A stretch of 64,000 nt of DNA from Candidatus Dojkabacteria bacterium (GTDB lineage: Bacteria; Patescibacteriota; Dojkabacteria; JAOAGR01). The notes below the pieces were generated by a model. It was not told the DNA's origin. It was given only the letters and a program-made list of their open reading frames with translations, and made no database searches. The stretch's first letter is position 1. Each line of letters starts with the position of its first letter. Positions 10,848 to 63,482 of this stretch are shown piece by piece. The DNA lies in the NCBI GenBank assembly GCA_026415655.1, contig JAOAGR010000002.1, forward strand, positions 64,094 to 128,093, given 5' to 3'. The position numbers were made by a program, and so were the translations under genes.

Positions 10848-10924
10848 GCATCCGTAGCTCAGTTGGATAGAGCACAACTTTGCGGAAGTTGGGGTCAGAG
10901 GTTCGAGTCCTCTCGGATGCGCCA
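10848..10924 (+). tRNA. tRNA-Arg, anticodon read as GCG (unusual for bacteria), CCA encoded
   Basis: GCATCCGTAGCTCAGTTGGATAGAGCACAACTTTGCGGAAGTTGGGGTCAGAGGTTCGAGTCCTCTCGGATGCGCCA. Acceptor stem GCATCCG/CGGATGC, anticodon stem CAACT/AGTTG, loop TTGCGGA giving G34 C35 G36. Confidence 0.8.
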
Positions 10925-11531: not shown

Positions 11532-12851
11532 TTGATCGTGGAAAAGACAGAATCAAAAGTAGGTAACTCACACCGAGGAAATGACGGAAGAGGAGGAATA
11601 TATAGTGTGGTTACTCCATTAAAACGTGTAGCACAGAGAATAACAAATTTTGTTTTATGTGCTCTTATTGGCTTATCCCCTATACATACTCCTGATGGAC
11701 TTCATGAACAGCCGGAAACGTCTGAACAGTATCTGTGTATACGAAATCCCTATTATAGTTATTTTGCGTATAATAGATTGGATCCCAGTCGACGATTTGG
11801 TGATACGGGGGAAATAGCGCAGTTTTCTCCACGTGATCAATATTTTAAAGCTGTTGCCGTAGTATGTGGTGTTATATTTTATGCAGTCATGCCAGACAAT
11901 CATAGTCTTGAAGAGTTAGAGGAAATGACATTGAGCTTCATGGAATCATTACCTTCTTCATTACGTAAAATAGCTTCAAGGGGAGAAAATATTTTTACAG
12001 ATTATGCCTCTACTAGGAGGTATGTTGGATTTCATAACGGTGGAGAAAATTACATTTATGTTTACGGAAAAGACTTTGTGGATAAAGCATCTGTGTTTGC
12101 AATTTTTGCTCACGAATTAGCTCATAGACTTCAAGAAACTAATGCAAGTACTCTTCAAGATTATAACAATCGAATGATAACTTATATGCAGGGATTAAAT
12201 TTAAATGGTGAGGAATATAGGGTCAGAGCTGGTCCTTATGTCCCGATTATTGATGCTGAATCGTACTATAAAGATTATTCCTTTCCAGAACAAACCGTCA
12301 ACCTCGAATTTGGCCCATATCTTATCCAAAATATGGCATACGCGATGTACCAGATTTTACAAACGAAGGAAGAAGGTATAAGTCAAGATGAGATCAAACG
12401 CGAAATAAGTAACGCTATGAGGAAGATTGCTGTCGATATCGTTTTTGGTGAATCGGGGGATTACAATAGAAAATTATCATCGTTACTTGCTATAATTGAG
12501 GCAGAAGAGTGGTTCAAAAATGAGGAAGAACCGGGGTGGAGACATGCATTTAATGCCTTGCGAAGAGGGATAATAGGAAACATTGTTATAGCATATCTGA
12601 ACGACGAGAAGAGTTGGAAACCGTACATTGAAGGTTTACGTAATACATTTCCGGACGTGTATGAAGGGCTAAAATCTGTGATTAGTCGTGCTGAAAATAG
12701 TGAGCAAAGGAGACCGCTGTTCAAACATGGACCTGATGCTCATGTCAGAAGAGATTATTATATGCCTCAGGCAGCTATGCAACGCCGAAATACCCGAATT
12801 ACGGAACTTCAGGGCGATAGAGGGTCACACAAATATACGAGTAGAGGGTAA
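11532..12851 (+). CDS. Putative zinc metalloprotease (HExxH) of unknown family, inside a compositionally atypical (GC-richer) islet
   Basis: 439 aa. 'FAIFAHELAHRLQE' contains HELAH. Local GC of about 40-45% contrasts with about 30% in the flanks. I recognise no other domain. Confidence 0.5.
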   Translation: MIVEKTESKVGNSHRGNDGRGGIYSVVTPLKRVAQRITNFVLCALIGLSPIHTPDGLHEQPETSEQYLCIRNPYYSYFAYNRLDPSRRFGDTGEIAQFSPRDQYFKAVAVVCGVIFYAVMPDNHSLEELEEMTLSFMESLPSSLRKIASRGENIFTDYASTRRYVGFHNGGENYIYVYGKDFVDKASVFAIFAHELAHRLQETNASTLQDYNNRMITYMQGLNLNGEEYRVRAGPYVPIIDAESYYKDYSFPEQTVNLEFGPYLIQNMAYAMYQILQTKEEGISQDEIKREISNAMRKIAVDIVFGESGDYNRKLSSLLAIIEAEEWFKNEEEPGWRHAFNALRRGIIGNIVIAYLNDEKSWKPYIEGLRNTFPDVYEGLKSVISRAENSEQRRPLFKHGPDAHVRRDYYMPQAAMQRRNTRITELQGDRGSHKYTSRG

Positions 12852-13841
12852 ATTTTAATAAGGTATTAGTCACATTAATTTCAGATAATCTGAATAGTTG
12901 TTGATTACTAATTTGAAGATACAAATATCACAAGACTATAGAGATATACTAGAGCCTTGAACATAGAAGAGTCAAAAGGGAGGGTATCAAAATACAACAA
13001 GAAAGTACGAGTATTACGGCATGAGGGTGCAGCATCAATACTGCAGATACGAAAGATACAGATGGTGTAGGTTGTAGCTGATAATTATAAGGATCAGCTG
13101 GTGATCGGATGATAGCTAATAAAAGATAGACGTTATAAGGAGCAATTTAATCAACGATACAGATATATAGACATCGTTATTAATATGTGATATAATTACT
13201 ATACCATGACAGGAGCAAATACAGCATTCGGATTAAATTTGGAACTCGATAGTAGCCGTGCTGATACAGATGATAAGTATATAAGGCTACCAGATCTTTT
13301 GTATATTTTATTTGCAAGCTGTGTCGCTTCGGGTAATGGAGGTCCAACACTTTCTGATAACCCTTTCTATAGGGTGAATTCATGTGTTGAGGATGCCTTC
13401 AGAAATGGTGATTTTTGCCGTCGTTATCCTGATATAATGAGACCGGAAAGCATGCCCGTTGGGGCATTACTGGATGCCCTATCGGGTTTGGTATCAAGGC
13501 TCCGTCTCTCCTCACATCTCTTGATGCAAGGTGACATACAGGGAGTAGATAGTACTCCTTCAAGACAGAGGAGATCGAGCCGCACATGAGATGTTAGAAA
13601 TAACAGAAATGGTAGAACCTCTTTTATTTAAGTAAGAATTTGGTTCTAGTGCACACATACCACATGACCATGTGCATCAAACGGAGACAAAATACTCAAG
13701 TGATTAAGTATAGGTGCATCAACTAGCTAGGAATAAGCATATAAGCGTAAAGAGTGAATGTCTATCAATGTACTCAACATATTCTTCTCAAATCTTTATT
13801 TCTATTGTATACTCACGCAAGTAATATAATAAATACTCATT

Positions 13842-22637: not shown

Positions 22638-23867
22638 ATGAGAATAAAATCCGTCAAAGCTAGACAAATACTAAATTCAAAAGGTCATCCTACACTTGAA
22701 GTCGAGATATCGACTAATAGATATACAGCATATTCATCTGTACCTACTGTATCGTCTAAAAGCAAGTATGAATATGTGGATATATATGATCATGATGTGC
22801 TCAAATTTGATGGTGATACACTTTCAGTAGTTGTAAGGAATATAGAAACGGTTGTTGCAAATGAATTGAAAGGTAAAAATGTACTGGATCAGGAGAGTAT
22901 AGATAATTTACTTTTGGATATAGATGCTACATATGATAGAAGCAAACTGGGTATAAGTGCTATTACATCAATATCTCAATGTGTAGCGAAACTTGGTGCG
23001 TTAGAATCAGAGATGCCTCTTTATAAATATATACGCGTTTTGTACGAGTTTGGTGATGAAAGTGTGATAAAACTTCATTCTGAATATAATATGCCATTGC
23101 CTGTTATCACTATACTCAAAAGCGGTGCTCATAACAGACAAAATAGTCTGCCTTTTCAGGAGATAATGCTTCTACCACGTAGTGATTTTCGTTATAGTGA
23201 AATAATTGATGTCTATAATGCTCTTAGAAGTCTTGATCTTATTGATAAACCTAAGTCATTTCTTGAACTACTGGATAGCGTTAATAAATTTATCAAAAAG
23301 TCAAAGTATAGATTTTATTTTGGGATAGATTTTAGCGCTTCTAGATATAAAGACACTGATACTGGCGAGTACATCCTACCAAATTTTTACTCAAAAGGTG
23401 AATTTTATAGAGCTGATACAAAAAAGATGGTGAAGCTTTATAAAGATTTGTTAGGTCGTTATGAGGCATTAGTTTTTTTGGAGGATGTATTTGATGAAGA
23501 TGATTTTGCATCGTGGAAAGAGACCCATAATCTGATAGAGTATAATCCGTCAGCGGTACAAATAGTCTCAGATGACCTAACAGCAGGCAATATAGAAAGA
23601 CTAGAAAAGGTTGGTATATTAGAGGTTGCTAATAATATAGTGCTGAAGCCAACACAGGTAGGTACAGTAACCGAAATGATAAGATTTGCATCGCGAGTGA
23701 AAAGATATAATCTTGGTCTCACAGTATCTTATCGAAGTGGAGAAACAGAGGATACATTTATATCAGATTTAGCGGTAGGAGTAGGAGCGGAGTTTATAAG
23801 GGTAGGATCTTATATAGGAAGTGAGTGTAATAGTAAAATAAATAGATTGTTGCAGATGGATGTATAA
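22638..23867 (+). CDS. eno: Enolase-superfamily protein, a divergent enolase homolog
   Basis: 'IKSVKARQILNSKGHPTLEVEI' resembles (ARE)ILDSRGNPTVEV. 'IEDVFDEDDFASW', 'VSDDLTAGN', 'NNIVLKPTQVGTVTE' and 'SYRSGETEDTFISDLAVG' match the enolase core. Tyr replaces the catalytic His of SHRSGETED and Arg the Lys of 'IKTG'. Confidence 0.75.
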   Translation: MRIKSVKARQILNSKGHPTLEVEISTNRYTAYSSVPTVSSKSKYEYVDIYDHDVLKFDGDTLSVVVRNIETVVANELKGKNVLDQESIDNLLLDIDATYDRSKLGISAITSISQCVAKLGALESEMPLYKYIRVLYEFGDESVIKLHSEYNMPLPVITILKSGAHNRQNSLPFQEIMLLPRSDFRYSEIIDVYNALRSLDLIDKPKSFLELLDSVNKFIKKSKYRFYFGIDFSASRYKDTDTGEYILPNFYSKGEFYRADTKKMVKLYKDLLGRYEALVFLEDVFDEDDFASWKETHNLIEYNPSAVQIVSDDLTAGNIERLEKVGILEVANNIVLKPTQVGTVTEMIRFASRVKRYNLGLTVSYRSGETEDTFISDLAVGVGAEFIRVGSYIGSECNSKINRLLQMDV

Positions 23868-27513: not shown

Positions 27514-28242
27514 TTATATCCATCCTAATATTATACGGTTTACTACATCTTGTAAACTGCGCATAATAGGAATTACTTTTCTAAAGTGCATTCTTTTAGG
27601 TCCTAGTACAGCGGCAACAATTCTTTCCTTTGCCATTAGTGTGAGTTCGGTGTAGACTATAGAACACTCATAAAGCATTTTTTCATTGGATTCTTCGCCG
27701 ATAATTACTTTGACCCTTGAATCGGTATAATTACGGTTAAACACATTAGAAAGCATATTGTAATCATCAAAACTTATTAATATATTTTTGAAAACATCAC
27801 GATCACTAAATTCTTGGTAGTCAATAAGATTATAAAGTCCAGCATAATGTATACCTTCTTCGGATAGTACGATTGATGCGTATTTTGTAATGTCTGCAAG
27901 TACCGCACATAATGCTCTCATCAATTTTTTATTGTTTATCTTATGTTTTTGAAGCTCTCGGGCAATTAAAATCTCCGTCATATAATCAATTGGTTCTTCC
28001 AGCATCAGATCAGAAATATATTTTCTATATCCAAGAACTGTTGGTATGCGCCCAGATGAAGAGTGGGACTTAGAAATATATCCTTCATCAGCTAGTTTTA
28101 CCATTTCATAGCGTATTGTGGCTGGTGATACATCAAGATTGTATTTGTACGAGATAAGATTAGATCCAACCGGTGTGGCGGTTTCTATAAATTCGGTTAC
28201 TATTGCATAAAGAATGGCTTTTTGTCTCTCAGTAAGATCCAT
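27514..28242 (-). CDS. hrcA: Heat-inducible transcription repressor HrcA
   Basis: 'LTERQKAILYAIVTEFIETATPVGSNLISYKYNLDVSPATIRYEMVKLADEGYISKSHSSSGRIPT' is the canonical HrcA winged-helix N-terminus. 242 aa (short form). Confidence 0.8.
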   Translation of the reverse strand: MDLTERQKAILYAIVTEFIETATPVGSNLISYKYNLDVSPATIRYEMVKLADEGYISKSHSSSGRIPTVLGYRKYISDLMLEEPIDYMTEILIARELQKHKINNKKLMRALCAVLADITKYASIVLSEEGIHYAGLYNLIDYQEFSDRDVFKNILISFDDYNMLSNVFNRNYTDSRVKVIIGEESNEKMLYECSIVYTELTLMAKERIVAAVLGPKRMHFRKVIPIMRSLQDVVNRIILGWI

Positions 28243-28251
28243 AATTTTATT

Positions 28252-28278
28252 TTAGCAGAGTAAAAAAGTAGATGCTAG
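28252..28278 (-). promoter_or_regulatory. CIRCE-like inverted repeat 10-36 bp upstream of the hrcA start (candidate HrcA operator)
   Basis: TTAGCAGAG-N9-AGATGCTAG compared with the CIRCE consensus TTAGCACTC-N9-GAGTGCTAA. It shares the TTAGCA...TGCTA core and the 9-nt spacer. Confidence 0.35.
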
Positions 28279-28303
28279 TTATTATCACTATCTGTGTATT
28301 TGA

Positions 28304-30868
28304 TTATTCTTGTAGTAAATTTTTGATTCTATGCAATACCTCCCAAGCTTGGATTGGTGATAATTTTTCAATTTCTAGATTTGTTATAATTTCTTTAAGT
28401 TCTTCATGTTTTTTGTCTTTTTCTTCCGAAAAATCATTATCTATTGTATCTATTAGTGATAGCGGGGTTGGTGCTAATAAATTTTCTTGCTTTTCTAATT
28501 TCTTTAAGATTTTTTCTGCCTTTTTTATTACATCCTCAGGTATTCCAGCTATTTTGGCTACATGTATTCCATAGCTTTTATCCGCCTTACCGGTAGCAAC
28601 CTCATGCATAAAAATTACTTCATTATTTCGCTCTATTACTTTTACATAAAGGTTTTTGACACTTGTATATTTGTTCGCTAGTTCTGTTAGTTCATGATAG
28701 TGTGTCGCAAATAAAACTATTCCTTTTTTTTCTATTAATTTCTCAGAAATGCCCCATGCAAGACTCATACCATCAAATGTTGCAGTACCACGTCCAACTT
28801 CGTCCAATATAATCAATGATTTTTTTGATGAGTTTTTAATTACGTTAGCTGTTTCTAGCATTTCTACAAGAAATGTACTTTGTCCCTCGGCGAGATTGTC
28901 TGATGCACCAATTCTCGAAAATATACCGTCTATAATTCCAATTGTTGCTTCTGATGCAGGCACATAAGATCCTATATGAGCAAGAATAACAATGATTGCT
29001 ACCATACGGATATATGTTGATTTACCACCCATATTTGGTCCGGTAATAAGAAAAAATCTATCTTTTTCGTTTGCGTAAAAAGAGTTTTTTACAAATATTT
29101 TATTTTCTCTGCGCAAAGTATACTCAACAACAGGATGCCAGCCGTTGATTATCTCTATTCTGTTTTCTTCTGTAATGAGTGGTAAAGTCCAATCATTTTC
29201 TAATGATAATAATGCTAAAGCAGAATATACGTCTATTAATCCTAGTTCATTACTAATATCTTGTAAGTCACCAATATAATTTTGTAATTCAGCTACTAAA
29301 TTATCAAATATCTTATTTTCTATTTCTTTTATTTTCTCATCGGCGGTCAGAAGCTTGTTTTCATATTCTTTGAGTTCCGGTGTTATGAATCTCTCAGCAT
29401 TCACAAGTGTTTGTTTGCGGACAAAATAGGCAGGTACGTTCTCAGATTTTTGTTTTGGTATCTCTATATAATATCCAAATACCTTGTTATACCTTACCTT
29501 TAAACTAGTAATCTGTGTTTTATTAATAAGTTCTTTTTCATAGTTATATAACCAATTACTGTCATTATTTTTTATTTCATAAAGCTCATCTAATTCGGCA
29601 TCTATGCTTGTTTTTATGCATCTATTATCTCTTATATTTTGAGGAGGTTCATCAATAATTGTATTAGATATTTTAATAATTATTTCTTTGAGATTGCTCA
29701 AAATTTTATTAATTCGTTCAATACCAGATTGATATAAAAACTCATTATTCTGAACTATATATTTAACTACTTTGTAAGCTTCAATACATGATATCTCAAT
29801 AGATTTTACTTCTCTGGGATTTATGTTTCTCATCCCAATCTTTGATGCTAGACGGGATAGATTTGAGGTTTGTTTTAATATATTCTGTATCTGTTTTATT
29901 CCATCGATTCCTAATGTTCTAAAATCTGTGATATCTCTTTGTCTTTTTTTCATTTGTTTAATATCTTGTAACGGCCTTTTAAGCCATTCTGTAAGCATTT
30001 TACTACCGTTGGTTGTGACTGTTCTATCTATTATCGTAAAAAGTGATAATCCTTTTTGCGAAAAAGATTCTAGTATTTCTAAATTTTTAAGACATATACT
30101 ATCAAGATGCATGTATTCTTTGAGTTTTATTTCCTCAATATTAGTGATGTGTATAAGTGCAGAGCGTTGTGTTGTATATAGATATTCAAGTAGTGTAATG
30201 ACAACTTTTTGTGTTTGTGAATCAAGTTTTTTTATTTTTTCCAAGATGCTTGTATTTACAAATTTACTTACATCGTGATTTTTACCTATATGTCCGAAAA
30301 TCCTATCAGAAAAACTGATTATATATTTTTGAATAAAATTTTTAATTTTATCATTTTCTTCGCAGATAAGTATCTCTTGTGGATTAATGCGATATATGGA
30401 TTCTTTGCATTCTTCATAACTTTGACAATAAACAAGAAAAATAGAATTTTGTGTAATATCAGTATACGCTAATAAGCAATCTTTTTCATTAACAACATCT
30501 AGAACTAGGATATAAGAATTAGTTTTTTTATCTTCTAATAAAATATCTGTTCCGGGGGTAACTATCCTTGTAACTTCACGCTTTACTACACCTTTAGCCT
30601 GTGCTGGATTTTCCATCTGTTCCACAACAACCACTCTTTTATTTGCTTTTGTCAATTTTGGTAGATAATTGTCCAAAGTGTGATAGGGGATACCAGCCAT
30701 TGGGATAGATTTTTCTTTATCCCTTGCTGTTAGTGTGATATTCAAGATCTTTGATACTTCATGGGCATCTTCATAGAAAGTCTCATAAAAATCACCCATT
30801 CTAAAAAGGATAATACAATCAGGATATTCATTCTTTATTGATAGATATTGTTGCATCGCTGGAGTCAT
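28304..30868 (-). CDS. mutS: DNA mismatch repair protein MutS
   Basis: 854 aa. 'MTPAMQQYLSIKNEYPDCIILFRMGDFYETFYEDA' (mismatch-binding domain) and 'ITGPNMGGKSTYIRMVAII' (Walker A). Confidence 0.9.
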   Translation of the reverse strand: MTPAMQQYLSIKNEYPDCIILFRMGDFYETFYEDAHEVSKILNITLTARDKEKSIPMAGIPYHTLDNYLPKLTKANKRVVVVEQMENPAQAKGVVKREVTRIVTPGTDILLEDKKTNSYILVLDVVNEKDCLLAYTDITQNSIFLVYCQSYEECKESIYRINPQEILICEENDKIKNFIQKYIISFSDRIFGHIGKNHDVSKFVNTSILEKIKKLDSQTQKVVITLLEYLYTTQRSALIHITNIEEIKLKEYMHLDSICLKNLEILESFSQKGLSLFTIIDRTVTTNGSKMLTEWLKRPLQDIKQMKKRQRDITDFRTLGIDGIKQIQNILKQTSNLSRLASKIGMRNINPREVKSIEISCIEAYKVVKYIVQNNEFLYQSGIERINKILSNLKEIIIKISNTIIDEPPQNIRDNRCIKTSIDAELDELYEIKNNDSNWLYNYEKELINKTQITSLKVRYNKVFGYYIEIPKQKSENVPAYFVRKQTLVNAERFITPELKEYENKLLTADEKIKEIENKIFDNLVAELQNYIGDLQDISNELGLIDVYSALALLSLENDWTLPLITEENRIEIINGWHPVVEYTLRRENKIFVKNSFYANEKDRFFLITGPNMGGKSTYIRMVAIIVILAHIGSYVPASEATIGIIDGIFSRIGASDNLAEGQSTFLVEMLETANVIKNSSKKSLIILDEVGRGTATFDGMSLAWGISEKLIEKKGIVLFATHYHELTELANKYTSVKNLYVKVIERNNEVIFMHEVATGKADKSYGIHVAKIAGIPEDVIKKAEKILKKLEKQENLLAPTPLSLIDTIDNDFSEEKDKKHEELKEIITNLEIEKLSPIQAWEVLHRIKNLLQE

Positions 30869-34079: not shown

Positions 34080-35297
34080 ATGGCAAAGATCGTAGATCTA
34101 AAGGCAAGGCAGATTCTTGGTACTAATGGAAATTATTGTATTGCTTGCGAAGTGATGCTTGATACTGGCGAAAAGAGTTTTATCCAAATGCCGGTCCTTC
34201 ATGACCATAACTTTATATCATGTTATGATGTTCCGAATTCTAAATCAAATATTATTAAAAGTGTATTAAAACAAGTTTTTTATATTAACAATAATATTAA
34301 GAAAATCTTGGTGGATCGCAAAATTGAAGATCTTGAAATTGTTGATGAGATCTTGTCACGTCTTGATAATGATCAGAGATGTTCTAACTTAGGTATAAAT
34401 ACTATTTCTGCAGTGTCCTGGTCATTATTTTTAGCAGCAGCCAAATCAAAGAATGTAGATTTGTTTAAATACATCTCCGAGTTCTGTGGTTTTGATAATA
34501 TTACTTATACTTTTCCATATGTTGTTTTTGATATATTTACGGATCCAGAAAAAAGAGTAATTCCATGGAGCGGAATTGGTATAGTGCCTGTTTTGAAAAC
34601 ACGTTTCAAGGATATGATTGATTTTGTTATCAGACTCTATGAACAGATTATAAAATCGAAAAAATACATATATCATATTAACTATGATGGGGGAATATTG
34701 CCAGATACTGACAATTTAGAAGGATTGTTAGAGGAGATTATTACAGCGGGAGAGAAGATCGGTTTTTACAATAAAAAAGATTTCTTTATAGTATTGGATG
34801 CTGGTTTAAATCGCAATCAAAACAATAAATATTTCATCAAATACAATTCGGATGATATTACAAGACTAGAATTAATTAAATATTATGAAAATTTAATAAA
34901 AAAATACTATTTAGGATCAATTATTAATCCGATTAATACTCATGACAAGGAAGGAATATCTACCATAATAGATGTATTGAGTAAAGATGTTCAGATAATA
35001 TTTGATTATCATTATTTTGACGATAAAGACCAGATATTTAGTTTTGATGATAATGTGACTGTCGGTATTCGTTTGGAAAATTTCTTAACAGCTACTTCCA
35101 TGCTAAATTTTTTATCAAAATTAAAAAATAAAAGTATTCCTTTTATTTTGAGGCATTCTTTGTTTGAGACGATCGATCATTTTTTGGCTGATATAGCTAT
35201 TGGCACAAGATCGATTCAGATAGATTTTGGTGGACTTTTTGGGGGACAAAATGTAGCAAAATACAACAGACTTTTAACTATAGAAGAACTGTCTTGA
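34080..35297 (+). CDS. Second enolase-superfamily paralog, strongly degenerate (probable pseudo-enzyme)
   Basis: 'IVDLKARQILGTNGNYCIACEV' aligns with the enolase N-terminus. 'LRHSLFETIDHFLADIAIG' aligns with SHRSGETEDTFIADLAVG but with key residues replaced. 'NVAKYNRLLTIEEL' resembles AKYNQLLRIEEEL. Confidence 0.55.
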   Translation: MAKIVDLKARQILGTNGNYCIACEVMLDTGEKSFIQMPVLHDHNFISCYDVPNSKSNIIKSVLKQVFYINNNIKKILVDRKIEDLEIVDEILSRLDNDQRCSNLGINTISAVSWSLFLAAAKSKNVDLFKYISEFCGFDNITYTFPYVVFDIFTDPEKRVIPWSGIGIVPVLKTRFKDMIDFVIRLYEQIIKSKKYIYHINYDGGILPDTDNLEGLLEEIITAGEKIGFYNKKDFFIVLDAGLNRNQNNKYFIKYNSDDITRLELIKYYENLIKKYYLGSIINPINTHDKEGISTIIDVLSKDVQIIFDYHYFDDKDQIFSFDDNVTVGIRLENFLTATSMLNFLSKLKNKSIPFILRHSLFETIDHFLADIAIGTRSIQIDFGGLFGGQNVAKYNRLLTIEELS

Positions 35298-35349: not shown

Positions 35350-37662
35350 GTGAGTCTTGCAAAAAAACAAATTGATAGTTTAAAAAAATACTTTCGTGCT
35401 GTAAATTATTTGTCTGCCATTCAAATATATCTTAAAAGTAATTTTTTACTTGAACGCAATCTAACTTTTGATGATATCAAACCAAGACTTTTGGGACATT
35501 GGGGAACATGTCCAGGTATAAATTTTCTTTATACTAATATTAACTTTTTTATAAAAAGAACTTCGCAAAAAACTGTTCTTCTGATAGGACCGGGGCACGG
35601 ACTCCCAGCTATACAAGCAAATGTTTATTTGGATGGTACTTTAGGGCAAAAATATCCGCAAGCGCAACACAATTTAGATGGTATTGAATTTATATCCAAA
35701 CTATTTTCCTGGCCTTATGGATTTCCAAGTCATGCAAGTCCCATGACTCCTGGAGTTTTATTAGAAGGCGGTGAACTTGGTTATGCACTAAGTATGGCTT
35801 TTGGGGTTACAAAATTTAAAAAGGATCTTCTTGTTATACCTTTTATAGGTGATGGAGAAGCGGAAACAGGACCAACAGCCACTTCTTGGTTTTTAAATAG
35901 ATTCTGGAATCCACTCGAGGATGGATTCATCATTCCGATAGTTCATGTAAATGGATATAAAATCTCAGGACCAACTATATATGGTCGCATGTCACTACTT
36001 GAATTAAAAGATCTTTTTTATGGATATGGCTACGATCCGATTTTTGTAGAATACAACGAATTTGAGGATATATTTGTAAAGATGCAGCAGGCACTCAGCA
36101 GATCTTATGAAATATCGCTCTCCATTCGATCTAAATATGCACAAGGATCTATATCTATTCCTAGGATTCCTGTGATCATCTTAAAAACTCCCAAAGGTTG
36201 GACAGGTATTAAATCTTATGAGAATGTTAAAATTGAAGATAATTATCTTTCTCATCAAGTTCCACTTTCAAATGCAAAATCAGATGAAAATCAATTGAGA
36301 GCTTTAGAAGATTGGTTAAGAAGTTATCATTTCGAGGAAGTATTTAATGAAGAATACGGATTTTCGAAGGATATTTTAGATATATTGCCCAGTGATGGAT
36401 TAAAAATTGCCGATGTTGTAGAAAATGAACTTCAACCTATGGATCTGATATCCGTTACCAATCCACAAGACCTGGCCAATTATCCAATTCATGCTCACCA
36501 AAGCTCGATGAAAGGCATTGGAAAGTATTTAAAAGAATTGATCAGATCAAATCCTAAAAGTTTTGCGGTATTTTCACCAGATGAAACTTACTCTAATAAA
36601 ATAAATGAGATTTTTCTCGTAACCAAAAGAGTAAATTTATGGCCGTTAAAATCTTCAGATGAAGATTTTGCTACTTCTGGAAATGTCTTTGAGATGTTGT
36701 CGGAGCACGCATTGTTTGGAATGTTAAAAGGATTTGTTATGTCAGGCAGATCTGGAGTATTTGTATCATATGAGGCTTTTGTGCAGATTATCACTAGCAT
36801 GGTAGATCAATACATTAAGTTCCTTAAACAATCAAGAAAGGTACATTGGAGGGCAAAACTAAATGCTTTAAACATAATTCTCACTTCGTCAGGATGGAGG
36901 CAAGACCATAATGGTTTTACACATCAAAATCCTGGATTTTTAAGTAATATTATTGAAAAACAAGATGTATCTGTACGAATATATTTTCCTGTAGATATAA
37001 ACACATCTGTTATTTTATTGGACAAGGTTTTGTATCAAAAGAATAGAATAAATGTCATATGTGTAGGAAAAACAGAGGAACCGGTATATTTTGATGCCCA
37101 TTCAGCAAGAACAGCGTTAGATGATGGCTACTGTATTTTTGATGATGAAATAAATACATCACCAGATATTGTGATTGTTGGTATTGGTGATTACATGGCA
37201 AAAGAGGCTTGGTACGCAAGTCAGATCTGTCGTTTTGAGTTAATCAAATTTCATATAAGACTTGTCTTTGTAATAGATTTTTACAAATTTCAAAAAATGC
37301 TAGAACTGAGTCCTAATAAGTTTAATTCTATTTTTAGAGCGAAATATTTGACAGTATGGAATTTTCACGGATATCCGCAGAGTCTAATGAAAATTTTATT
37401 TAATTCATCTGTATCATCCAATTCATATGTAAATGGATACATAGAGGTAGGATCAACGACGACACCTTTTGATATGCTCATTAGAAACAAAGTTTCGAGG
37501 TGGAATATATTTCTTCAGGTTTTGGATCGTTTATTAGATCTTGGAAAAATTTCCAAGAAACATTATAAGAAGTTGAAATTTAAATACGAAGAAAAATTTA
37601 GAAAACATAAGATATTTATTCAAAAATATGGATATGATCAAGATTGGATAAATATAGTATAA
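35350..37662 (+). CDS. xfp: Phosphoketolase (xylulose-5-P/fructose-6-P)
   Basis: 770 aa. 'LGHWGTCPGINFLYTN', 'GPGHGLPAIQANVYLDGTL' and 'EGGELGYALSMAFG' are phosphoketolase/ThDP signatures. Confidence 0.9.
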   Translation: MSLAKKQIDSLKKYFRAVNYLSAIQIYLKSNFLLERNLTFDDIKPRLLGHWGTCPGINFLYTNINFFIKRTSQKTVLLIGPGHGLPAIQANVYLDGTLGQKYPQAQHNLDGIEFISKLFSWPYGFPSHASPMTPGVLLEGGELGYALSMAFGVTKFKKDLLVIPFIGDGEAETGPTATSWFLNRFWNPLEDGFIIPIVHVNGYKISGPTIYGRMSLLELKDLFYGYGYDPIFVEYNEFEDIFVKMQQALSRSYEISLSIRSKYAQGSISIPRIPVIILKTPKGWTGIKSYENVKIEDNYLSHQVPLSNAKSDENQLRALEDWLRSYHFEEVFNEEYGFSKDILDILPSDGLKIADVVENELQPMDLISVTNPQDLANYPIHAHQSSMKGIGKYLKELIRSNPKSFAVFSPDETYSNKINEIFLVTKRVNLWPLKSSDEDFATSGNVFEMLSEHALFGMLKGFVMSGRSGVFVSYEAFVQIITSMVDQYIKFLKQSRKVHWRAKLNALNIILTSSGWRQDHNGFTHQNPGFLSNIIEKQDVSVRIYFPVDINTSVILLDKVLYQKNRINVICVGKTEEPVYFDAHSARTALDDGYCIFDDEINTSPDIVIVGIGDYMAKEAWYASQICRFELIKFHIRLVFVIDFYKFQKMLELSPNKFNSIFRAKYLTVWNFHGYPQSLMKILFNSSVSSNSYVNGYIEVGSTTTPFDMLIRNKVSRWNIFLQVLDRLLDLGKISKKHYKKLKFKYEEKFRKHKIFIQKYGYDQDWINIV

Positions 37663-37825
37663 ATTAAGATATGTGTTAGTTCTATTGTATTATCGAAGAT
37701 TATTTGTAAGATGAACAGTTATTAGTGCTTAATATTTTATATTTTAGTAAGCGTTCGAAGTCGGATTGTAAAATATCTAATATTGTCAGACTATTTATTT
37801 ATTTGCTAAACTACATTTTGAGAAT

Positions 37826-40471
37826 ATGGATAATTTTATTAATGAAAATTTTAGTAAAAATGCCATCCAAGCAATCAAAACAGCTATGGATGTATGCGTA
37901 AGAGTAGGAGATTCTTCACTCATGATTGAGCATATTTTTGTTGGGATTTTGCATGTTAAAGAAGGTATTGGAGCAAAGATACTCTCAAGGTTAGGTCTCG
38001 ATCCTGATGCTACTATTACGAGTATAGAACATGAATTGTCCAAAAGAATAGAAGTAGACAATCAGGACAAAAAGGTAGATGTGATTCAGATTACGCTTTC
38101 TGAGAGTGTCAAAGAACTTCTAAGAAGGTCTTATGAAGTAGCATCAGAGATGAATCATCCTTATGTGGGTACTGAGCATATATTGCTGTCTATATTAAAA
38201 TTTTCTGATAATCCGTTTGTACAAGAATTGCATAGATTAGGTATCACCTATGAACGTATTCAAAAAGAGATTGAAGAGTTTGTGACATACCCGGTTTATA
38301 ACCGTGTCAACAATAATTCACAGGTTGATAAACCTGAAAATCAAGACAATAAACAAGTTCCACCAACGCCAAGTATGCCACCATTTATACCGGGAATCGG
38401 AAATATCAATCCTAAGGCTTTATTAAACGATATGATGAAGATGTTTGGAGGTGGGCCAGGCGGATATAGTCCTGAAGGGTCATCTTTTCTAGAAACATAT
38501 GGAAGAAATCTCACTTTAGAAGCTAAAAAAGGTAAATTAGATCCTGTGATTGGTAGAGAGGAAGAAATTTTGAGAGTAATGCAAGTATTAGCTCGCAGGA
38601 CCAAAAATAATCCGATACTACTTGGAGATGCGGGTGTGGGAAAGACTGCTGTGGTTGAGGGGCTAGCTCAATATTTGATCTCTGAAGAGGCATCTCCTGT
38701 GCTTTCTAATTTTGAAATATGGTCCATTGATATTTCATCAATTATTGCTGGATCACAATTGCGTGGTGATGTGGAGGGTAAAATATTAGAGCTCATAAAG
38801 GAAGTTACATCAAAAGGCAATATTATCCTTTTCATAGATGAAATTCATACGATTATGGGGGCTGGTGCAACAACAAATAGTTCATTGGACGTGGCAAATA
38901 TATTAAAACCTGCTCTTGCAAGGGGTACTCTCAGATGTATAGGTGCAACAACCGTTGATGAATACAAACAACATTTTGACAATGATCCAGCTCTGCAACG
39001 TAGATTTATGCCTGTGTACATAGAAGAAATGAGTCCAGAGGATACTTTTGCCATTTTAAAAAATCTAAAGCCAATTTATGAAAATTATCACAACGTACAG
39101 ATAGAAGATAGTGCCCTATGGGCGGCTATAAATCTCACAAATAGATTTATTACAGATAGATATTTACCAGATAAGGCCATCGATGTCATAGATGAGGCTT
39201 GTTCTAAAAATAAAATCGAAAGAATAAAGATACCTAAGAAATTTAGAGAATTAAATGCGCAATTGGCAAATGTACGTTTAGCAAAGTATGATGCTGAAAA
39301 GAATGGTGACATAGATAAGGCAGCAGAACTTTTAAATCAAGAAAAAGAACTTACAAAAAAGATCGAGTCAGAAGCTAAGAAAATGCAGAAAAAATGGAAC
39401 ACGCAAAATAAATCTATAACTGTAAAAGATATAAGAAATATCATTGCAAAATGGAGTAAAGTACCATTGGCTACAGTGAGTGATGATGTGGAAACTTTAA
39501 TCAAAAAATTAGAAAAAGACCTAAGAGACAATGTCATTGGTCAGGACCACGCAGTGGATTTAGTTGTTAGTGCTATCAAAAGATCAAAAGCTGGATTGGC
39601 AGGTTATGATAGACCTTTAGCATCATTTCTTTTTGTTGGTGCCACAGGTGTTGGAAAAACAGAATTAGCAAAACAACTTGCAAAATCACTTTTTGGCTCT
39701 AAAGATGACCTTATACAGGTGGATATGAGTGAGTTTATGGAGTCTCATAGTGTATCAAAGCTTATCGGTTCGCCACCTGGATATGTAGGTTATGATCAGG
39801 GAGGACAATTGACAGATAAAGTACGTGAAAACCCATTTAGCGTGGTGCTATTTGATGAGATAGAAAAGGCGAGTCCTGATGTGTTAAATATACTTTTGCA
39901 AATTTTGGACGAAGGTAAGCTGACTGACAGCAAGGGAAGAACAGTTAATTTTAAAAATACCATAATCATAATGACCTCAAATATCGGTGCCGAGTTTGTA
40001 GGTAAAGATTCAAAAGTTGGTTTTTATCTTAAAAAAAAGGAAGAAACAAAAACTAATAAATATGAAAAAGCTTTGGCAGATATAAAAGAAAGAATTGTTG
40101 AAAGTTTAAAAGAATATTTGTCACCTGAATTTTTAAATCGAATAGATGATATTGTTGTATTTAGAGAATTAAATAAGTCAGATGTTGAAAAAATAACAAA
40201 ATTGCAACTTCAAAATCTTGCGAACAGATTGAAAAAAGAATTAAAAGTAGTTATTAAGAATTATGATTCACCTAAAATTGTTAAAGAAACAACGAGATTA
40301 GGCTATTCTGAAGAATACGGTGCACGTGAATTACGCAGAATTATTACATCCATGATTGAGACCAAAGTAGCTGATTTTATTATCAGCAAAAAATGGGATC
40401 CGGATGCTAAAAATGTTCTAAATATAAAGTTGCAAGTCAAAAACGGATCATTTATTGTAAGTGAAGCATAA
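37826..40471 (+). CDS. ClpC/ClpB-family AAA+ chaperone with ClpP-docking VGF loop and a Pro/Gly-rich insertion
   Basis: Clp_N repeats are present. Two Walker A motifs: 'LLGDAGVGKTAVVEGLA' and '[16 protein letters not shown]'. Short M-domain. 'KVGFYL' at 40016-40024 is an IGF-type ClpP loop. Insertion 'QVPPTPSMPPFIPGIGNINPKALLNDMMKMFGGGPGGYSPEGSS' lies after the N-domain. Confidence 0.85.
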   Translation: MDNFINENFSKNAIQAIKTAMDVCVRVGDSSLMIEHIFVGILHVKEGIGAKILSRLGLDPDATITSIEHELSKRIEVDNQDKKVDVIQITLSESVKELLRRSYEVASEMNHPYVGTEHILLSILKFSDNPFVQELHRLGITYERIQKEIEEFVTYPVYNRVNNNSQVDKPENQDNKQVPPTPSMPPFIPGIGNINPKALLNDMMKMFGGGPGGYSPEGSSFLETYGRNLTLEAKKGKLDPVIGREEEILRVMQVLARRTKNNPILLGDAGVGKTAVVEGLAQYLISEEASPVLSNFEIWSIDISSIIAGSQLRGDVEGKILELIKEVTSKGNIILFIDEIHTIMGAGATTNSSLDVANILKPALARGTLRCIGATTVDEYKQHFDNDPALQRRFMPVYIEEMSPEDTFAILKNLKPIYENYHNVQIEDSALWAAINLTNRFITDRYLPDKAIDVIDEACSKNKIERIKIPKKFRELNAQLANVRLAKYDAEKNGDIDKAAELLNQEKELTKKIESEAKKMQKKWNTQNKSITVKDIRNIIAKWSKVPLATVSDDVETLIKKLEKDLRDNVIGQDHAVDLVVSAIKRSKAGLAGYDRPLASFLFVGATGVGKTELAKQLAKSLFGSKDDLIQVDMSEFMESHSVSKLIGSPPGYVGYDQGGQLTDKVRENPFSVVLFDEIEKASPDVLNILLQILDEGKLTDSKGRTVNFKNTIIIMTSNIGAEFVGKDSKVGFYLKKKEETKTNKYEKALADIKERIVESLKEYLSPEFLNRIDDIVVFRELNKSDVEKITKLQLQNLANRLKKELKVVIKNYDSPKIVKETTRLGYSEEYGARELRRIITSMIETKVADFIISKKWDPDAKNVLNIKLQVKNGSFIVSEA

Positions 40472-47489: not shown

Positions 47490-48547
47490 ATCAGAGTTGC
47501 TTTGTTTTTGGCTATAGTAAATAAAGTAAATTTATTATTTACGTAAGTTGGATTTGAAATAGATTTGACGATAATGAAATCATAATTTAAGAGATCCATT
47601 TGTTTTCCGTCAAAATAGAAAGTTTCATCAAGTACGATAGTATTGTTTTTTTCTAGATCTACCTCTCTGGATGATATACAAAAAATGACTGGTGTCTTAA
47701 TTGAAATATTTTGGCATATTTCATTGAGATAATCTGTACTATAAAGGAAATCAGGTCTTGCAAGCAATTTTAGATTTATGAAAGACTGATTGTTTTCTTT
47801 ATCGGTACTATAAGAATTCGATGATGTATTAAATATAAGTAGTAAGTAACCGTTTACCTTATTCCTTTTAGATAATTTCTTCTTTTTTTTATTTTGTTTT
47901 ATCTCAATGTATGATAAATGAGTTTCTAACGTGTAGCTTCTGTTTTTGATCAGCCCGGCATCTATGTAGATATTTTTTTTACTAATTAAATTCGAATCTT
48001 TATAGATAAAAATTTCCAAATATATGTGTGATTTACTGTTTGTCGATAGTTGTTTTGAAGATTTTGTGTAATATTGGCAAAGATTATTTTCAATTACTAA
48101 TCTGTATTCGATATTTATATCAGAATTGATATTTGTAATCTGATCTACACTTTTGATTAGTATTTCTTTTAAATACTCAAAATCAGATTTGTCTATGCTT
48201 TGGTTGTTCTGTTCCGGTTCTTCTATATTGATATAAATATTATTTACATAAACTTGCGATGACTTTTTATAAAATTGATAAATGTTTTCGCTATAAGAAT
48301 AAAGTCTTTGTGACAGATCTGCAAGGTGTGTTCTGTCCGATCTATCGTTTAATACTAAATCTTTGTAAGCTTTTGTTAAACATATTCGTTCTTTTGTTTT
48401 GTGATATGACTTAATAATTCGTTTATTTACTGTATGTAAGCTAAAGTTTTCTATTGATTCTACTTTGATATAGATCTGTTTATTTTGGTTGGATTTAGAA
48501 CAGGTTTTAATTATGTAAGGCTTGTGATTGTCATATTGATATATCAT
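47486..48547 (-). CDS. Hypothetical protein (353 aa), middle gene of the operon
   Basis: Asn/Lys/Ser-rich. No recognisable domain. Lies between the PPDK-like gene and the 426-aa gene on the same strand. Confidence 0.45.
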   Translation of the reverse strand: MIYQYDNHKPYIIKTCSKSNQNKQIYIKVESIENFSLHTVNKRIIKSYHKTKERICLTKAYKDLVLNDRSDRTHLADLSQRLYSYSENIYQFYKKSSQVYVNNIYINIEEPEQNNQSIDKSDFEYLKEILIKSVDQITNINSDINIEYRLVIENNLCQYYTKSSKQLSTNSKSHIYLEIFIYKDSNLISKKNIYIDAGLIKNRSYTLETHLSYIEIKQNKKKKKLSKRNKVNGYLLLIFNTSSNSYSTDKENNQSFINLKLLARPDFLYSTDYLNEICQNISIKTPVIFCISSREVDLEKNNTIVLDETFYFDGKQMDLLNYDFIIVKSISNPTYVNNKFTLFTIAKNKATLI

Positions 48548-51545: not shown

Positions 51546-51584
51546 TAATTATTTATGTAGCATATTTCGGGGTTGGTCACAAGA

Positions 51585-51611
51585 TTAGCAGACAGTTGCG
51601 TGGTTTGCTAA
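51585..51611 (+). promoter_or_regulatory. CIRCE-like inverted repeat about 35 bp upstream of the clpC-like gene
   Basis: TTAGCAGAC-AGTTGCGTG-GTTTGCTAA matches CIRCE TTAGCACTC-N9-GAGTGCTAA at 7/9 in each half-site. It has the same variant left arm (TTAGCAGA) as the element upstream of hrcA. Confidence 0.45.
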
Positions 51612-51644
51612 AAATAACTGTTTGTACTACAATATAAATTAACT

Positions 51645-54089
51645 ATGGAAAATTATTTTAGTAATAGTGCTAAACAGGTTTTACAAGAGGCTGCACAGAT
51701 AGCGGTAGAACGTGGTACAACATATATAGACACGGAGCATATTTTATATGCGGCTGTACAGACTGAAATAAATAGAAAGATATTAGAAGAAATAAATAAA
51801 AATCCAGAAACTATTATTGAATATCTAGATAACAACATGCCTACATTTTCTAGAAGATTTTACGGAACCATTACTGCAGACTTAACGCCACGTGCGAAAC
51901 AAACTCTAAATCTTGCTTTTGAATTCGCAAGGGAATTTGGACATGGATATGTAGGTGTGGAACATATTCTTTTAGGAATTTTGGAAGAGAGCGAAGGTTT
52001 TGGAGCACAAGTTTTAAGAAGGTTTGGTATTACAGTTGAGGACTTAAAAAAAGCAATTAAAAAAGTGCTTGGTGAGGGTAGCAAACAAACTACAAAATCA
52101 GACACTCCTACTCTTGACAAGTATTGTCGAGATGTTACAAAACTAGCGCGAGAGGGTAAAATAGATCCGGTTATTGGGCGTAAAAATGAGATTGAAAGAG
52201 TTACTCAGATTCTTTCACGACGAAGAAAAAACAACCCTGTTCTTATTGGAGAACCCGGAGTTGGAAAAACAGCAATCGTGGAAGGATTAGCATTGAAAAT
52301 TGTTCAGGGGAACGTTCCAGATGTACTGCAGGATAAACGCGTTTTGGCTTTGGATATGGGATTGCTTATTGCTGGAACCAAATATCAAGGTGAATTCGAA
52401 GAAAGAGTAACTAAAATCATAAAAGAGTTACAATCATCTGGCGGAAATATAATTCTCTTCTTGGATGAATTACACACTATTGTTGGAGCCGGAGCAGCTG
52501 AGGGAAAAACTGATCTATCTAATCTTCTCAAACCCGCATTAGCAAGGGGAGAATTGCAAGCCATCGGTGCAACGACATTAATAGAATATAAAAAGTATAT
52601 AGAAAAAGATCCAGCGCTAGAAAGGAGATTTCAACCTGTTATTGTCTTGGAACCAACAGTCGAAGATGCAATACAAATATTAAAGGGATTAAGAGATAAA
52701 TACGAAGCACATCATAAAATTCAGATTTCTGATGAAGCAATAGAAGCCGCTGTAAATTTAAGCGTCAAATATATAAGTGACAGGTTTTTACCCGATAAAG
52801 CCTTAGATGTACTTGATGAAGCGGCATCAATGCTTAGACTTAAAACTATAAATGAGCCTGAACCGATTAGAAATATAAAACAAAAAATATCTGATTTAGA
52901 AAGGGAGAGAGAAGCCTTAACGCGTTCTAGAGAGTATGAAAAAGCAGCATTAGTGAAACAAGAAATTGAAAAATTGAAGGGTGAACTTCAACCATTAGAG
53001 GAAGAGTGGTTGAAAACAAGGGGTACCGGTACCCCAATATTAGGCGTAAATGAAATTGCAGAAGTAGTCTCAAATATGACCGGTATACCAGCAAATAAGA
53101 TTAATAAACAGGAAAAAGAGATACTAGCAAATTTAGAACAACTTTTACATAAGCGTGTTGTTGGGCAGGACAAAGCAGTAAGTGCTGTTGCCGATGCCGT
53201 ACGTAGATCTAGATTAGGTTTATCTGATGAAAAAAGGCCAATTGCATCATTTCTATTTGTTGGACCTACCGGTGTTGGAAAAACAGAACTGGCAAAAGCT
53301 CTTGCCGAAAATTTGTTTGGGCATGAGTCAAATCTCATACGTATAGATATGAGTGAATATATGGAGAAACATTCTGTTGCTCGTTTGATTGGTGCTCCGC
53401 CAGGTTATGTTGGTTATGAGGAAGGTGGACAGTTAACGGAAAAGGTGAGACGTAAGCCGTATTCTGTCATATTGTTAGACGAGATAGAAAAGGCACATCC
53501 TGATGTGGCCAATATACTTTTACAAATTTTAGAAGATGGACGTTTAACCGATGGACATGGGAGAACGGTTAATTTTAGAAATACCATAATTATTGCTACT
53601 TCAAATATCGCTTCAAATCAAATTTTTGAATACTATGAGAAGCAAATGAAAAACAGTAATGAAAAACCAGAAAGTACTATTTTGAAATTTAAAGAGAATG
53701 AAGAAGATAAGAAGGATATTGAGTCTGTTGTAATTAATGCTTTGAAAAATGTTTTTCGTGTTGAATTGATAAATAGGTTTGATGATATCATCATCTTTGA
53801 ACCACTTAGTAAAGACATAATAAACCAAATTGTCAGACTACATCTTGATAGATTAGTAGAAAAATTGGCAAGAAATGAAATAAAACTGTCTTATTCAGCT
53901 GAGATTGTTGAATATATAGCTGATAAGAGTTACAATCCGCGATTTGGTGCAAGAGAAGTCCGTAGATTTATACAAAAAAATGTGGAAAATCTGATTTCTA
54001 ACTATTTGATATCCCAAGACTCGAATATAAATCTAGATCTAAGTTTGACAATTGAAAACGATCAGATAAATGTAGTACCAAAAAATTAA
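51645..54089 (+). CDS. clpC: ATP-dependent Clp protease ATP-binding subunit ClpC-like (UVR-type M-domain, no obvious ClpP loop)
   Basis: 814 aa. Clp_N repeats. '[17 protein letters not shown]' and '[19 protein letters not shown]'. M-domain '[38 protein letters not shown]' is UVR-like. The region after '[13 protein letters not shown]' lacks a GF tripeptide. Confidence 0.85.
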
Positions 54090-63041: not shown

Positions 63042-63482
63042 ATGATAAAATTATTACATATGAGACTAAGCTCGGGGTTGAACAGATTTTTACTTTTTTT
63101 ATTAATTAATTTCTTATCATTTTTAATAATTATTCCTGATGTATTGGCACAAAGTAATAATACAACCAGTCAATGCCCGGCTAACGCTATTTACAATCCT
63201 TTAGATCCTAATTGTGATAGAAACCTTAATCTAGGTATAATATTTAATGTAATACTTAATGTAGTTCCATTCATAGTAGTACTTATAGCAGTCGGATTTT
63301 TTGCTTGGGGGGCAATAAAAATTATTATTGCTGGTGAAGACAGCAACGCAAGAGAAAAAGGTATAGAAACCATGAGAAATGCGATAATAGGGTTGGTAGC
63401 GTTCTTTCTCATTGGGATGATTCTTTGGATTGTATCATTAGTGACCGGTTCTGATATAGCATCGTTTATTTTGGGTAATTAA
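63042..63482 (+). CDS. Small secreted two-TM protein, possible TrbC/VirB2-like pilin
   Basis: 146 aa. Long signal peptide ending '..DVLAQ'. Cys pair (QCPANAIYNPLDPNCD). Two hydrophobic helices separated by 'AGEDSNAREKGIETMRN'. Architecture as in T4SS pilins. Confidence 0.4.
   Translation: MIKLLHMRLSSGLNRFLLFLLINFLSFLIIIPDVLAQSNNTTSQCPANAIYNPLDPNCDRNLNLGIIFNVILNVVPFIVVLIAVGFFAWGAIKIIIAGEDSNAREKGIETMRNAIIGLVAFFLIGMILWIVSLVTGSDIASFILGN

Follow-up and report, generated by a model that had tools for sequence, protein, structure and literature searches.

A 64,000-nucleotide stretch of a Candidatus Dojkabacteria genome (contig JAOAGR010000002.1, positions 64,094 to 128,093; ~30% G+C), hereafter the window, contains a gene for the repressor HrcA and two genes for Clp/Hsp100 ATPases, each preceded by a similar inverted repeat. 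The locus thus raises the question of whether these repeats are operators of HrcA, and whether Clp ATPases are under HrcA control in the Dojkabacteria (formerly WS6), which are part of the Candidate Phyla Radiation (CPR). The comparisons described below indicate that the three repeats are probably HrcA operators, namely CIRCE (controlling inverted repeat for chaperone expression) elements in a lineage-specific form, to which the hrcA product would bind. The sites are statistically and phylogenetically specific to hrcA and two clp families, and belong to the same motif family as sites before hrcA, dnaK and groES in other CPR lineages.

The three sites, their genes and the orthologous sites in related loci are given in Table 1. 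An initial annotation had described the sites at 28252–28278 and 51585–51611, and their letters, shared arms and 9-nt spacers are exactly as it gave them; its proposal that they represent a lineage-specific HrcA operator before hrcA and the 814-residue clp gene is supported by conservation within the clade (6/6 and 7/7 relatives, respectively) and by the CPR-wide motif family. The second clp paralog (37826) had been credited with a half-site only, which was wrong, because a full 9-N9-9 site precedes this 881-residue clp gene at 37783–37809 and is kept in 3/3 orthologues. Within the 12 outer bases of the motif (TTAGCA/TGCTAA), there are no mismatches at 51585, one at 28252 and two at 37783. The C of TGCTAA never varies among the sites, and only 39 of the 289 occurrences of TGNTAA in the window have C. 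The dyad symmetry extends to half-site positions 7–9, as in TTAGCAGAC / GTCTGCTAA. The only Rfam families present in the window are three transfer RNAs.

Table 1. Genes, candidate operators and predicted promoter in the window, with the orthologous sites in loci of related genomes (L handles)
Feature	Locus	Coordinates	Strand	Sequence	Remarks
hrcA	window	27514..28242	-		242-residue HrcA, winged helix-turn-helix and GAF-like domain; Pfam PF01628, E 4e-18
CIRCE-type site, hrcA	window	28252..28278		TTAGCAGAG-taaaaaagt-AGATGCTAG	forward-strand reading; from sequence
CIRCE-type site, 881-residue clp	window	37783..37809		TTGTCAGAC-tatttattt-ATTTGCTAA	ends 16 nt before ATG
ClpC-type ATPase, 881 residues	window	37826..40471	+		VGF at ClpP-docking loop (KDSKVGFYLK); Pfam, alignment
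CIRCE-type site, 814-residue clp	window	51585..51611		TTAGCAGAC-agttgcgtg-GTTTGCTAA	strongest in window; 8/9 palindromic
Predicted sigma-70-type promoter, 814-residue clp	window	51605..51633	+	TTGCTA-17-TACAAT	promoter scan, prediction only
Clp/Hsp100 ATPase, 814 residues	window	51645..54089	+		N domain, two AAA+ modules, short M domain; Pfam
hrcA site	L084			ATAGCATTT-N9-GACTGCCAA	
hrcA site	L086			ATGGCAGAT-N9-GTCTGCTAA	
hrcA site	L087			GTAGCAAAC-N9-CTCTGCTAA	
hrcA site	L103			GTAGCATTG-N9-GTTTGCTAA	
hrcA site	L104			GTAGCATAC-N9-GTTTGCTAA	
hrcA site	L105			ATAGCATTC-N9-GTCTGCTAA	
881-residue clp site	L096			CTGTCACTC-N9-GTCTGCTAA	
881-residue clp site	L097			TTGGCAGAT-N9-ATTTGCTAA	
881-residue clp site	L098			TTAGCGGAC-N9-TTCTGCTAA	
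814-residue clp site	L084			TTGGCAGTA-N9-GCTTGCTAA	
814-residue clp site	L089			TTAGCAGAC-N9-GATTGCTAA	
814-residue clp site	L090			TTGGCAGAG-N9-TCTTGCTAA	
814-residue clp site	L091			TTGGCAAAC-N9-TTCTGCTAA	
814-residue clp site	L092			TTGGCAGAC-N9-GCTTGCTAA	
814-residue clp site	L104			TTGGCAGAC-N9-ATCTGCTAA	
814-residue clp site	L105			TTGGCAGTA-N9-CTTTGCTAA	

A bare pattern match is weak evidence in this genome, because the loose pattern TTAGCA-N15-TGCTAA, allowing up to 2 mismatches, occurs about as often as chance predicts (5 occurrences in the window vs 4.84 expected). The counting of such matches was therefore dropped, and a symmetric position weight matrix (PWM) was used instead, trained on 77 CIRCE-type sites from 80 metagenomic loci of other CPR (L004–L083) with the window excluded. 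The top three PWM matches in the window were at 51585 (25.4 bits), 37783 (10.5 bits) and 28252 (9.6 bits); the fourth, at 48074 (7.0 bits), lies within a coding region, and the 20 kb of this genome that adjoin the window gave no match above 4.2 bits. In Markov shuffles of the window (n = 200), the best match averaged 8.0 bits, its 95th percentile was 14.8 and the highest of all was 20.9. Three matches of at least 8 bits were thus observed where 0.54 were expected from the shuffles, and the site at 51585 alone is significant singly, exceeding all 200 shuffles. What makes the sites at 28252 and 37783 convincing as candidate operators is their placement, no more than 16 nt from the hrcA or clp start codon, together with the conservation of the orthologous sites.

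To the window's clade we assigned ~37 HrcA relatives with 55–63% identity to the 242-residue HrcA, and the comparison set consisted of the window, its 10-kb flanks on each side and 14 loci from 11 related contigs. Neighbourhoods of hrcA were taken from clade members and those of the 881-residue Clp from its orthologues, while for those of the 814-residue Clp the anchor was a PPDK_N-like protein, a divergent neighbour specific to the lineage. Counting the window, a 9-N9-9 site was present before hrcA in 7/7 clade genomes, before the 814-residue Clp orthologue in 8/8, and before the 881-residue Clp orthologue in 4/4 (6/6, 7/7 and 3/3 of the relatives, respectively). The orthologous sites scored 10.9–17.5 bits for hrcA and 15.0–18.3 bits for the 881-residue clp. 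The 28 half-sites of the clade define the consensus TTRGCARAC, that is, T-T-(A/G)-G-C-A-(G/A)-A-C. The mean relative entropy was 1.13 bits in the arms, a figure inflated by the fact that the clade sites were chosen by PWM score, vs 0.27 for the spacer and 0.18 for the flanks, and neither spacers nor flanks are related between genomes.

Specificity was apparent also in the 229 kb of clade loci, where 14 of the 16 PWM matches of at least 6 bits fell at the hrcA and clp orthologous positions, the two exceptions being a 6.5-bit match in a coding region and an 11.5-bit match in L098. The latter (L098:5320–5346, TTGTCACTT-N9-AAGTGCTAA) lies between the convergent genes greA and serS, and could have arisen by chance or be a palindrome of terminator type. 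Three further loci (L103, L104, L105) again had their best matches before hrcA, and in L104 and L105 also before the 814-residue clp orthologue, which the sequence of L103 stops short of. Almost no other matches occur in ~290 kb of clade DNA, and the motif is confined to three gene families in ~370 kb.

A wider picture was obtained from a metagenome scan with the HrcA alignment, which gave only distant relatives (31–39% identity) among the matches listed and serves the CPR-wide comparison, not close footprinting. Other CPR lineages contain many further HrcA relatives at 31–40% identity, all ~240 residues long, and there hrcA heads a grpE-dnaK cluster, with dnaK ~1.2 kb downstream of hrcA in most loci. 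TTAGCA-N15-TGCTAA (with at most 1 mismatch) was found within 260 nt upstream of hrcA in 68 of the 80 other-CPR loci, and with 16-nt spacing in 8 more. Sites of the form CTAGCAGTC-N9-GTCTGCTAA precede DnaK genes (L056, L062, L063, L065), and TTGGCAATC-N9-(ATC/AGC)TGCTAA precedes GroES genes (L053, L073). Since the motif family occurs before hrcA, dnaK and groES in these lineages, it behaves as CIRCE does elsewhere.

The left arm TTAGCAGTC, with G at position 7, is about as frequent in other CPR as the canonical TTAGCACTC. Half-site position 8 is T in other CPR (75%) vs A in the window's clade (19 of 28 half-sites), and the clade variant falls within the range seen in other CPR according to the PWM frequency table. 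Judged by their letters, the window's sites are a drifted version of the CPR motif family, the main change being T to A at this position. The Clp-like genes of three other-CPR loci (L032, L043 and L049) have no site, so Clp control is not a general CPR feature. In most other-CPR loci (e.g. L006:930, L043:9956, L032:9941), the operator is interleaved with a TTGACA...TATAAT-type promoter, the order being cTTGACA, 4–6 nt, TTAGCA(C/G)TC, an extended -10 (gtgGTAtAnt) within the 9-nt spacer, and then nnnTGCTAA. A minority (L040, L053, L073, L074, L079) have the operator right after a TATAcT box, 0–2 nt from the start codon.

The window's HrcA has 100% identity to a protein (locus tag N3A71_00790) from a Candidatus Dojkabacteria metagenome-assembled genome. 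It retains the DNA-binding part of the family: residues 2–79 align to the winged helix-turn-helix of Thermotoga maritima HrcA (PDB 1stz; E 1e-13). A BLASTP alignment with a 346-residue HrcA has 37% identity over residues 1–128 and a gap at canonical positions ~129–222; the short protein aligns to canonical residues 1–128 and 223–337, with ~95 residues missing, and the PF01628 profile is matched only from position 77 of 215. A structure model of the protein (mean predicted local distance difference test score, pLDDT, 91) has 1stz as its best fold match, with a template modelling (TM) score of 0.73 when normalised by the query and 0.57 when normalised by 1stz. Canonical HrcA (1stz structure) is composed of a winged helix-turn-helix, a GAF-like domain and an inserted dimerizing domain, and the missing ~95 residues are presumably that dimerizing domain. 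The window protein departs from this three-part architecture in that the insert has no counterpart, a feature common to the whole ~240-residue HrcA family in the clade and in many CPR lineages (P0001–P0094).

In gene orientation the hrcA site reads CTAGCATCT-actttttta-CTCTGCTAA, with 9 nt between its end and the ATG (28242, minus strand). Its proximal arm overlaps an extended -10-like TGCTAAAAT (28257..28249, minus strand), the sequence of the proximal arm in most clade members, and a GATAAT lies 2 nt upstream of its distal arm. The placement is that of an autoregulatory operator, with the site before hrcA and overlapping its promoter or start, and the same is found in L084, L086, L087, L103, L104 and L105. 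The hrcA genes of the clade are solitary, lying directly downstream of mutS in the window (27514–30868), L084, L086 and L104, whereas in L087 and L105 they have another location; neither grpE nor dnaK was seen in any clade locus. An intrinsic terminator of mutS was considered as the source of the hrcA-proximal repeat and rejected, as none is predicted and the stem is just 5 bp.

The site of the 814-residue clp gene ends 33 nt before the ATG (51645), in a divergent intergenic region common to the PPDK_N-like gene. The -35 element of the predicted clp promoter is the right operator arm, and TACAAT is present at equal spacing before the orthologues in L089, L092 and L090. In an alignment with ClpC of C. 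difficile and Thermanaeromonas, the 814-residue protein and its L084 orthologue have no xGF tripeptide for ClpP docking. The initial annotation's label "clpC-like" is therefore loose for this gene, the Clp domains being present and the docking loop absent, and the gene with the strongest candidate operator may encode a ClpP-independent unfoldase. The heptamer GTCACAA precedes the left arm by 2–3 nt in the window (51570–51576) and L089, both at the 814-residue clp, and likewise in L097 at the 881-residue clp. Its reverse complement, TTGTGAC, could be a divergent -35, read in the window as TTGTGA-N17-TACATA before the PPDK_N-like gene at 51545, a gene that HrcA might also affect.

The 881-residue Clp belongs to an orthologous group with 53–59% identity that is distinct from the 814-residue type, and has a ~65-residue Pro/Gly-rich linker after its N domain. 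Both paralogs contain an N domain, two AAA+ modules and a short middle domain (Pfam), and a UVR motif is found in neither. A promoter preceded by TG, TTGTCA-18-TAAACT (37783–37812), is predicted on top of the 37783 site; unlike the window, the orthologues have a TATAAT box 8–14 nt downstream of the site. At all three genes, and at L104, the site or predicted -10 sits 6–13 nt from the start codon (28243–28251, 37810–37825, 51634–51644 and L104:17691–17698), and no Shine-Dalgarno-like sequence was found in these short gaps before the hrcA and clp start codons. Because of the very short gaps and the lack of such a sequence, the hrcA and clp messages are suggested to be leaderless or nearly so.

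No sign of CtsR control was found at the clp genes. A tandem CtsR heptad, RGTCAAANANRGTCAAA, is absent from 37663–37825 and 51546–51644; with up to 3 mismatches it has 20 matches in the window vs 13.8 expected, none of them upstream of the clp genes, in line with the initial annotation. No CtsR-like open reading frame was recognised by eye in the window's list, of which the small frames were not Pfam-scanned, and the genes upstream of the clp genes are unrelated to ctsR, being a phosphoketolase gene (881-residue clp) and the divergent PPDK_N-like gene (814-residue clp). The earlier suggestion of a Clp ATPase under HrcA rather than CtsR is thus supported by the comparative evidence, which points to HrcA as the probable binder. 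A sigma-54 promoter (TGGCAC-N5-TTGC) was also considered and rejected, the spacing from TGGCAG to TTGC being 13 nt, not 5.

In the mechanism that we propose, the short HrcA (27514–28242) would bind each site as a dimer. In the predicted geometry, the sites would overlap the -35 of the 814-residue clp, the -35 to -10 region of the 881-residue clp and the extended -10/start region of hrcA. Since the operator overlaps the core promoter or start in every arrangement, a bound HrcA dimer would exclude RNA polymerase, and transcription would be blocked under normal conditions. Upon heat or protein-folding stress, HrcA would lose activity, and hrcA and both Clp/Hsp100 genes would be derepressed. In model organisms, HrcA activity is lost as unfolded proteins titrate GroEL away, and it is by analogy with these organisms that we infer repression, stress induction, stress sensing by HrcA and GroEL dependence in the present case. 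GroE modulates HrcA binding (review, PMC9696931).

Several points weigh against the assignment of these repeats as HrcA operators, in addition to the selection by score mentioned above. The scores of the 28252 and 37783 sites fall in the range of chance maxima, and no site in the window is within 3 mismatches of the canonical TTAGCACTC-N9-GAGTGCTAA, the best having 4. Dimerization of the short HrcA on a palindrome is puzzling, because the insert, the presumed dimerizing domain, is absent. The 28252 and 37783 sites each coincide with a plausible -35/extended -10 promoter, and promoter function may thus explain some of their conservation. Furthermore, no chaperone (groES/dnaK) promoter is present among the clade sequences compared, so the comparison covers hrcA and clp only: the window contains no dnaK, grpE, groES or groEL, its 10-kb flanks no dnaK or groES/groEL, a tblastn search of the earlier clade loci with CPR DnaK and GroES gave no match, and the gene tables of the later loci list none.

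A farther-reaching proposal, which we regard as unlikely, is that the minimal HrcA of this clade is uncoupled from grpE-dnaK and rewired to a regulon with little or nothing in it beyond hrcA and the two Hsp100 ATPases. In that case, the minimal HrcA would dimerize and sense stress differently from the canonical GroEL-dependent HrcA.

The serious rival, improbable in our estimate, is that the repeats are core promoters only, with no repressor involved, the likeness to CIRCE being incidental in an AT-rich genome. The repeats would then consist of -35-like TTGGCA, TTAGCA or TTGTCA and extended -10-like TGCTAAAAT or TGCTAAACT elements, 18 nt apart, which would account for the promoter predicted exactly on the 37783 site, for the predicted -35 at the right arm at 51605, for the reading TGC(T/C)AAAAT or TGCTAATAT in every clade hrcA site, and for the L104 clp site lying 8 nt from the ATG. 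However, a general promoter would be expected before many genes, while there are three sites in ~84 kb here and, in ~290 kb of the relatives, only those of the hrcA and clp orthologues. The left arm of the 814-residue clp site is situated upstream of the -35, a place in which no promoter element is required, yet it is kept at a fixed 15-nt distance in 8/8. Moreover, the arms are reverse-complementary out to position 9, more symmetry than a promoter by itself needs, the "n" of TGn is always C, and the position of the motif relative to the TATAAT/TACAAT boxes differs among orthologues.

HrcA operators at all three genes are also to be preferred over the quite improbable case that only the 51585 site is real and those at 28252 and 37783 are decayed or chance look-alikes without function. 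The 9.6 and 10.5 bits of the latter are near the mean shuffle maximum, and the hrcA site in the window is a perfect inverted repeat of just 5 bp. Against this, both are within 16 nt of the starts of genes whose orthologues have better sites; and since chance would give ~0.3–0.5 matches of that score in 64 kb, with target regions making up <0.3% of the window, each placement would occur by chance with a probability of ~1e-3.

Least probable is that another regulator, or an alternative sigma factor dedicated to stress, uses the motif and that HrcA is a target, not a binder. In favour of this, the link from HrcA to the sites in the window's clade is drawn from sequence, the inner triplets are unlike those of canonical CIRCE and HrcA is atypically short. 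Against it, the sites have CIRCE's outer hexamers (TTAGCA/TGCTAA) and its 9-nt spacer, and across CPR the motif accompanies short hrcA, preceding it in 68/80 loci, a classic autoregulation signature, and is found before dnaK and groES in those lineages as well. In addition, CtsR-type heptads are absent at the clp genes, the dyad symmetry speaks against a sigma-factor promoter, and the sites presumably fit neither the HAIR (HspR-associated inverted repeat) nor the ClgR consensus.

With the three repeats taken as probable HrcA operators, the system resembles the HrcA/CIRCE class I regulon of Bacillus subtilis (hrcA-grpE-dnaK-dnaJ, groESL) in its repressor with an N-terminal winged helix-turn-helix, its operator before hrcA, the 9-bp inverted repeat with a 9-bp spacer, the outer TTAGCA/TGCTAA, and the overlap with promoter or start. 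It differs in that the inner triplets are (G/A)AC rather than CTC, the repressor is ~95 residues shorter, hrcA is solitary downstream of mutS with no grpE-dnaK after it, and the targets seen are two Clp ATPase genes. The sites share the 240-residue HrcA family and the 9-N9-9 geometry with the short-HrcA sites of other CPR.

In streptococci and lactobacilli, clp genes such as S. salivarius clpP and L. gasseri clpL are controlled by both CtsR and HrcA, and CtsR boxes are present. The initial annotation had drawn an analogy with streptococci, in which CIRCE is likewise found before clp-family genes; in the present case, neither clp gene has a CtsR box upstream and no ctsR gene was seen in the window. 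The HrcA regulon of Mollicutes is closer, consisting of the dnaK operon together with clpB and lon, with an extremely conserved CIRCE (PMC5138195, citing Chang et al. 2008). Like the present lineage, Mollicutes are genome-reduced and have few regulators; they have no CtsR (none is apparent here), and place an Hsp100-family ATPase, besides the classical chaperones, under HrcA/CIRCE, as is probable here for the Clp ATPases. Unlike it, they keep canonical CIRCE and full-length HrcA, and the target is ClpB, whereas the two paralogs here are of ClpC length and only one of them has the ClpP-docking loop. An extension of HrcA/CIRCE repression to two Clp ATPases is thus supported by the sequence comparisons as a modest lineage-specific twist on a well-known system, and would be unsurprising.

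Regulation in this uncultured CPR lineage is almost wholly uncharted, and a literature search found no paper on HrcA in Patescibacteria. The proposed wiring, in which one repressor would act on three operators and two protein-quality-control ATPases, is testable. HrcA/CIRCE is among the most conserved bacterial repressor-operator pairs, and would here have been kept in reduced genomes although the half-site has drifted and the repressor is truncated. As in Mollicutes, HrcA would control Hsp100 ATPases, CtsR being apparently absent. The consensus TTRGCARAC-N9-GTYTGCYAA could be used to annotate the heat-shock regulons of Dojkabacteria genomes.

Other features of the window were noted. The region 11600–13600, just after tRNA-Arg(gcg) at 10848–10924, has 34–44% G+C vs ~30% elsewhere and may be a foreign island; it contains a 439-residue open reading frame with an HExxH motif (FAHELAHRLQE), and no ribosomal RNA was found there by Rfam. 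Two divergent enolase-family paralogs with Enolase_N and Enolase_C domains (Pfam) lie within 12 kb (22638–23867, 409 residues; 34080–35297, 405 residues), one of them adjoining the phosphoketolase gene (35350–37662). Three tandem small T4SS_pilin (PF18895) genes follow the PNPase gene, both in the window (63042–63482) and in L101 (10451–11703).

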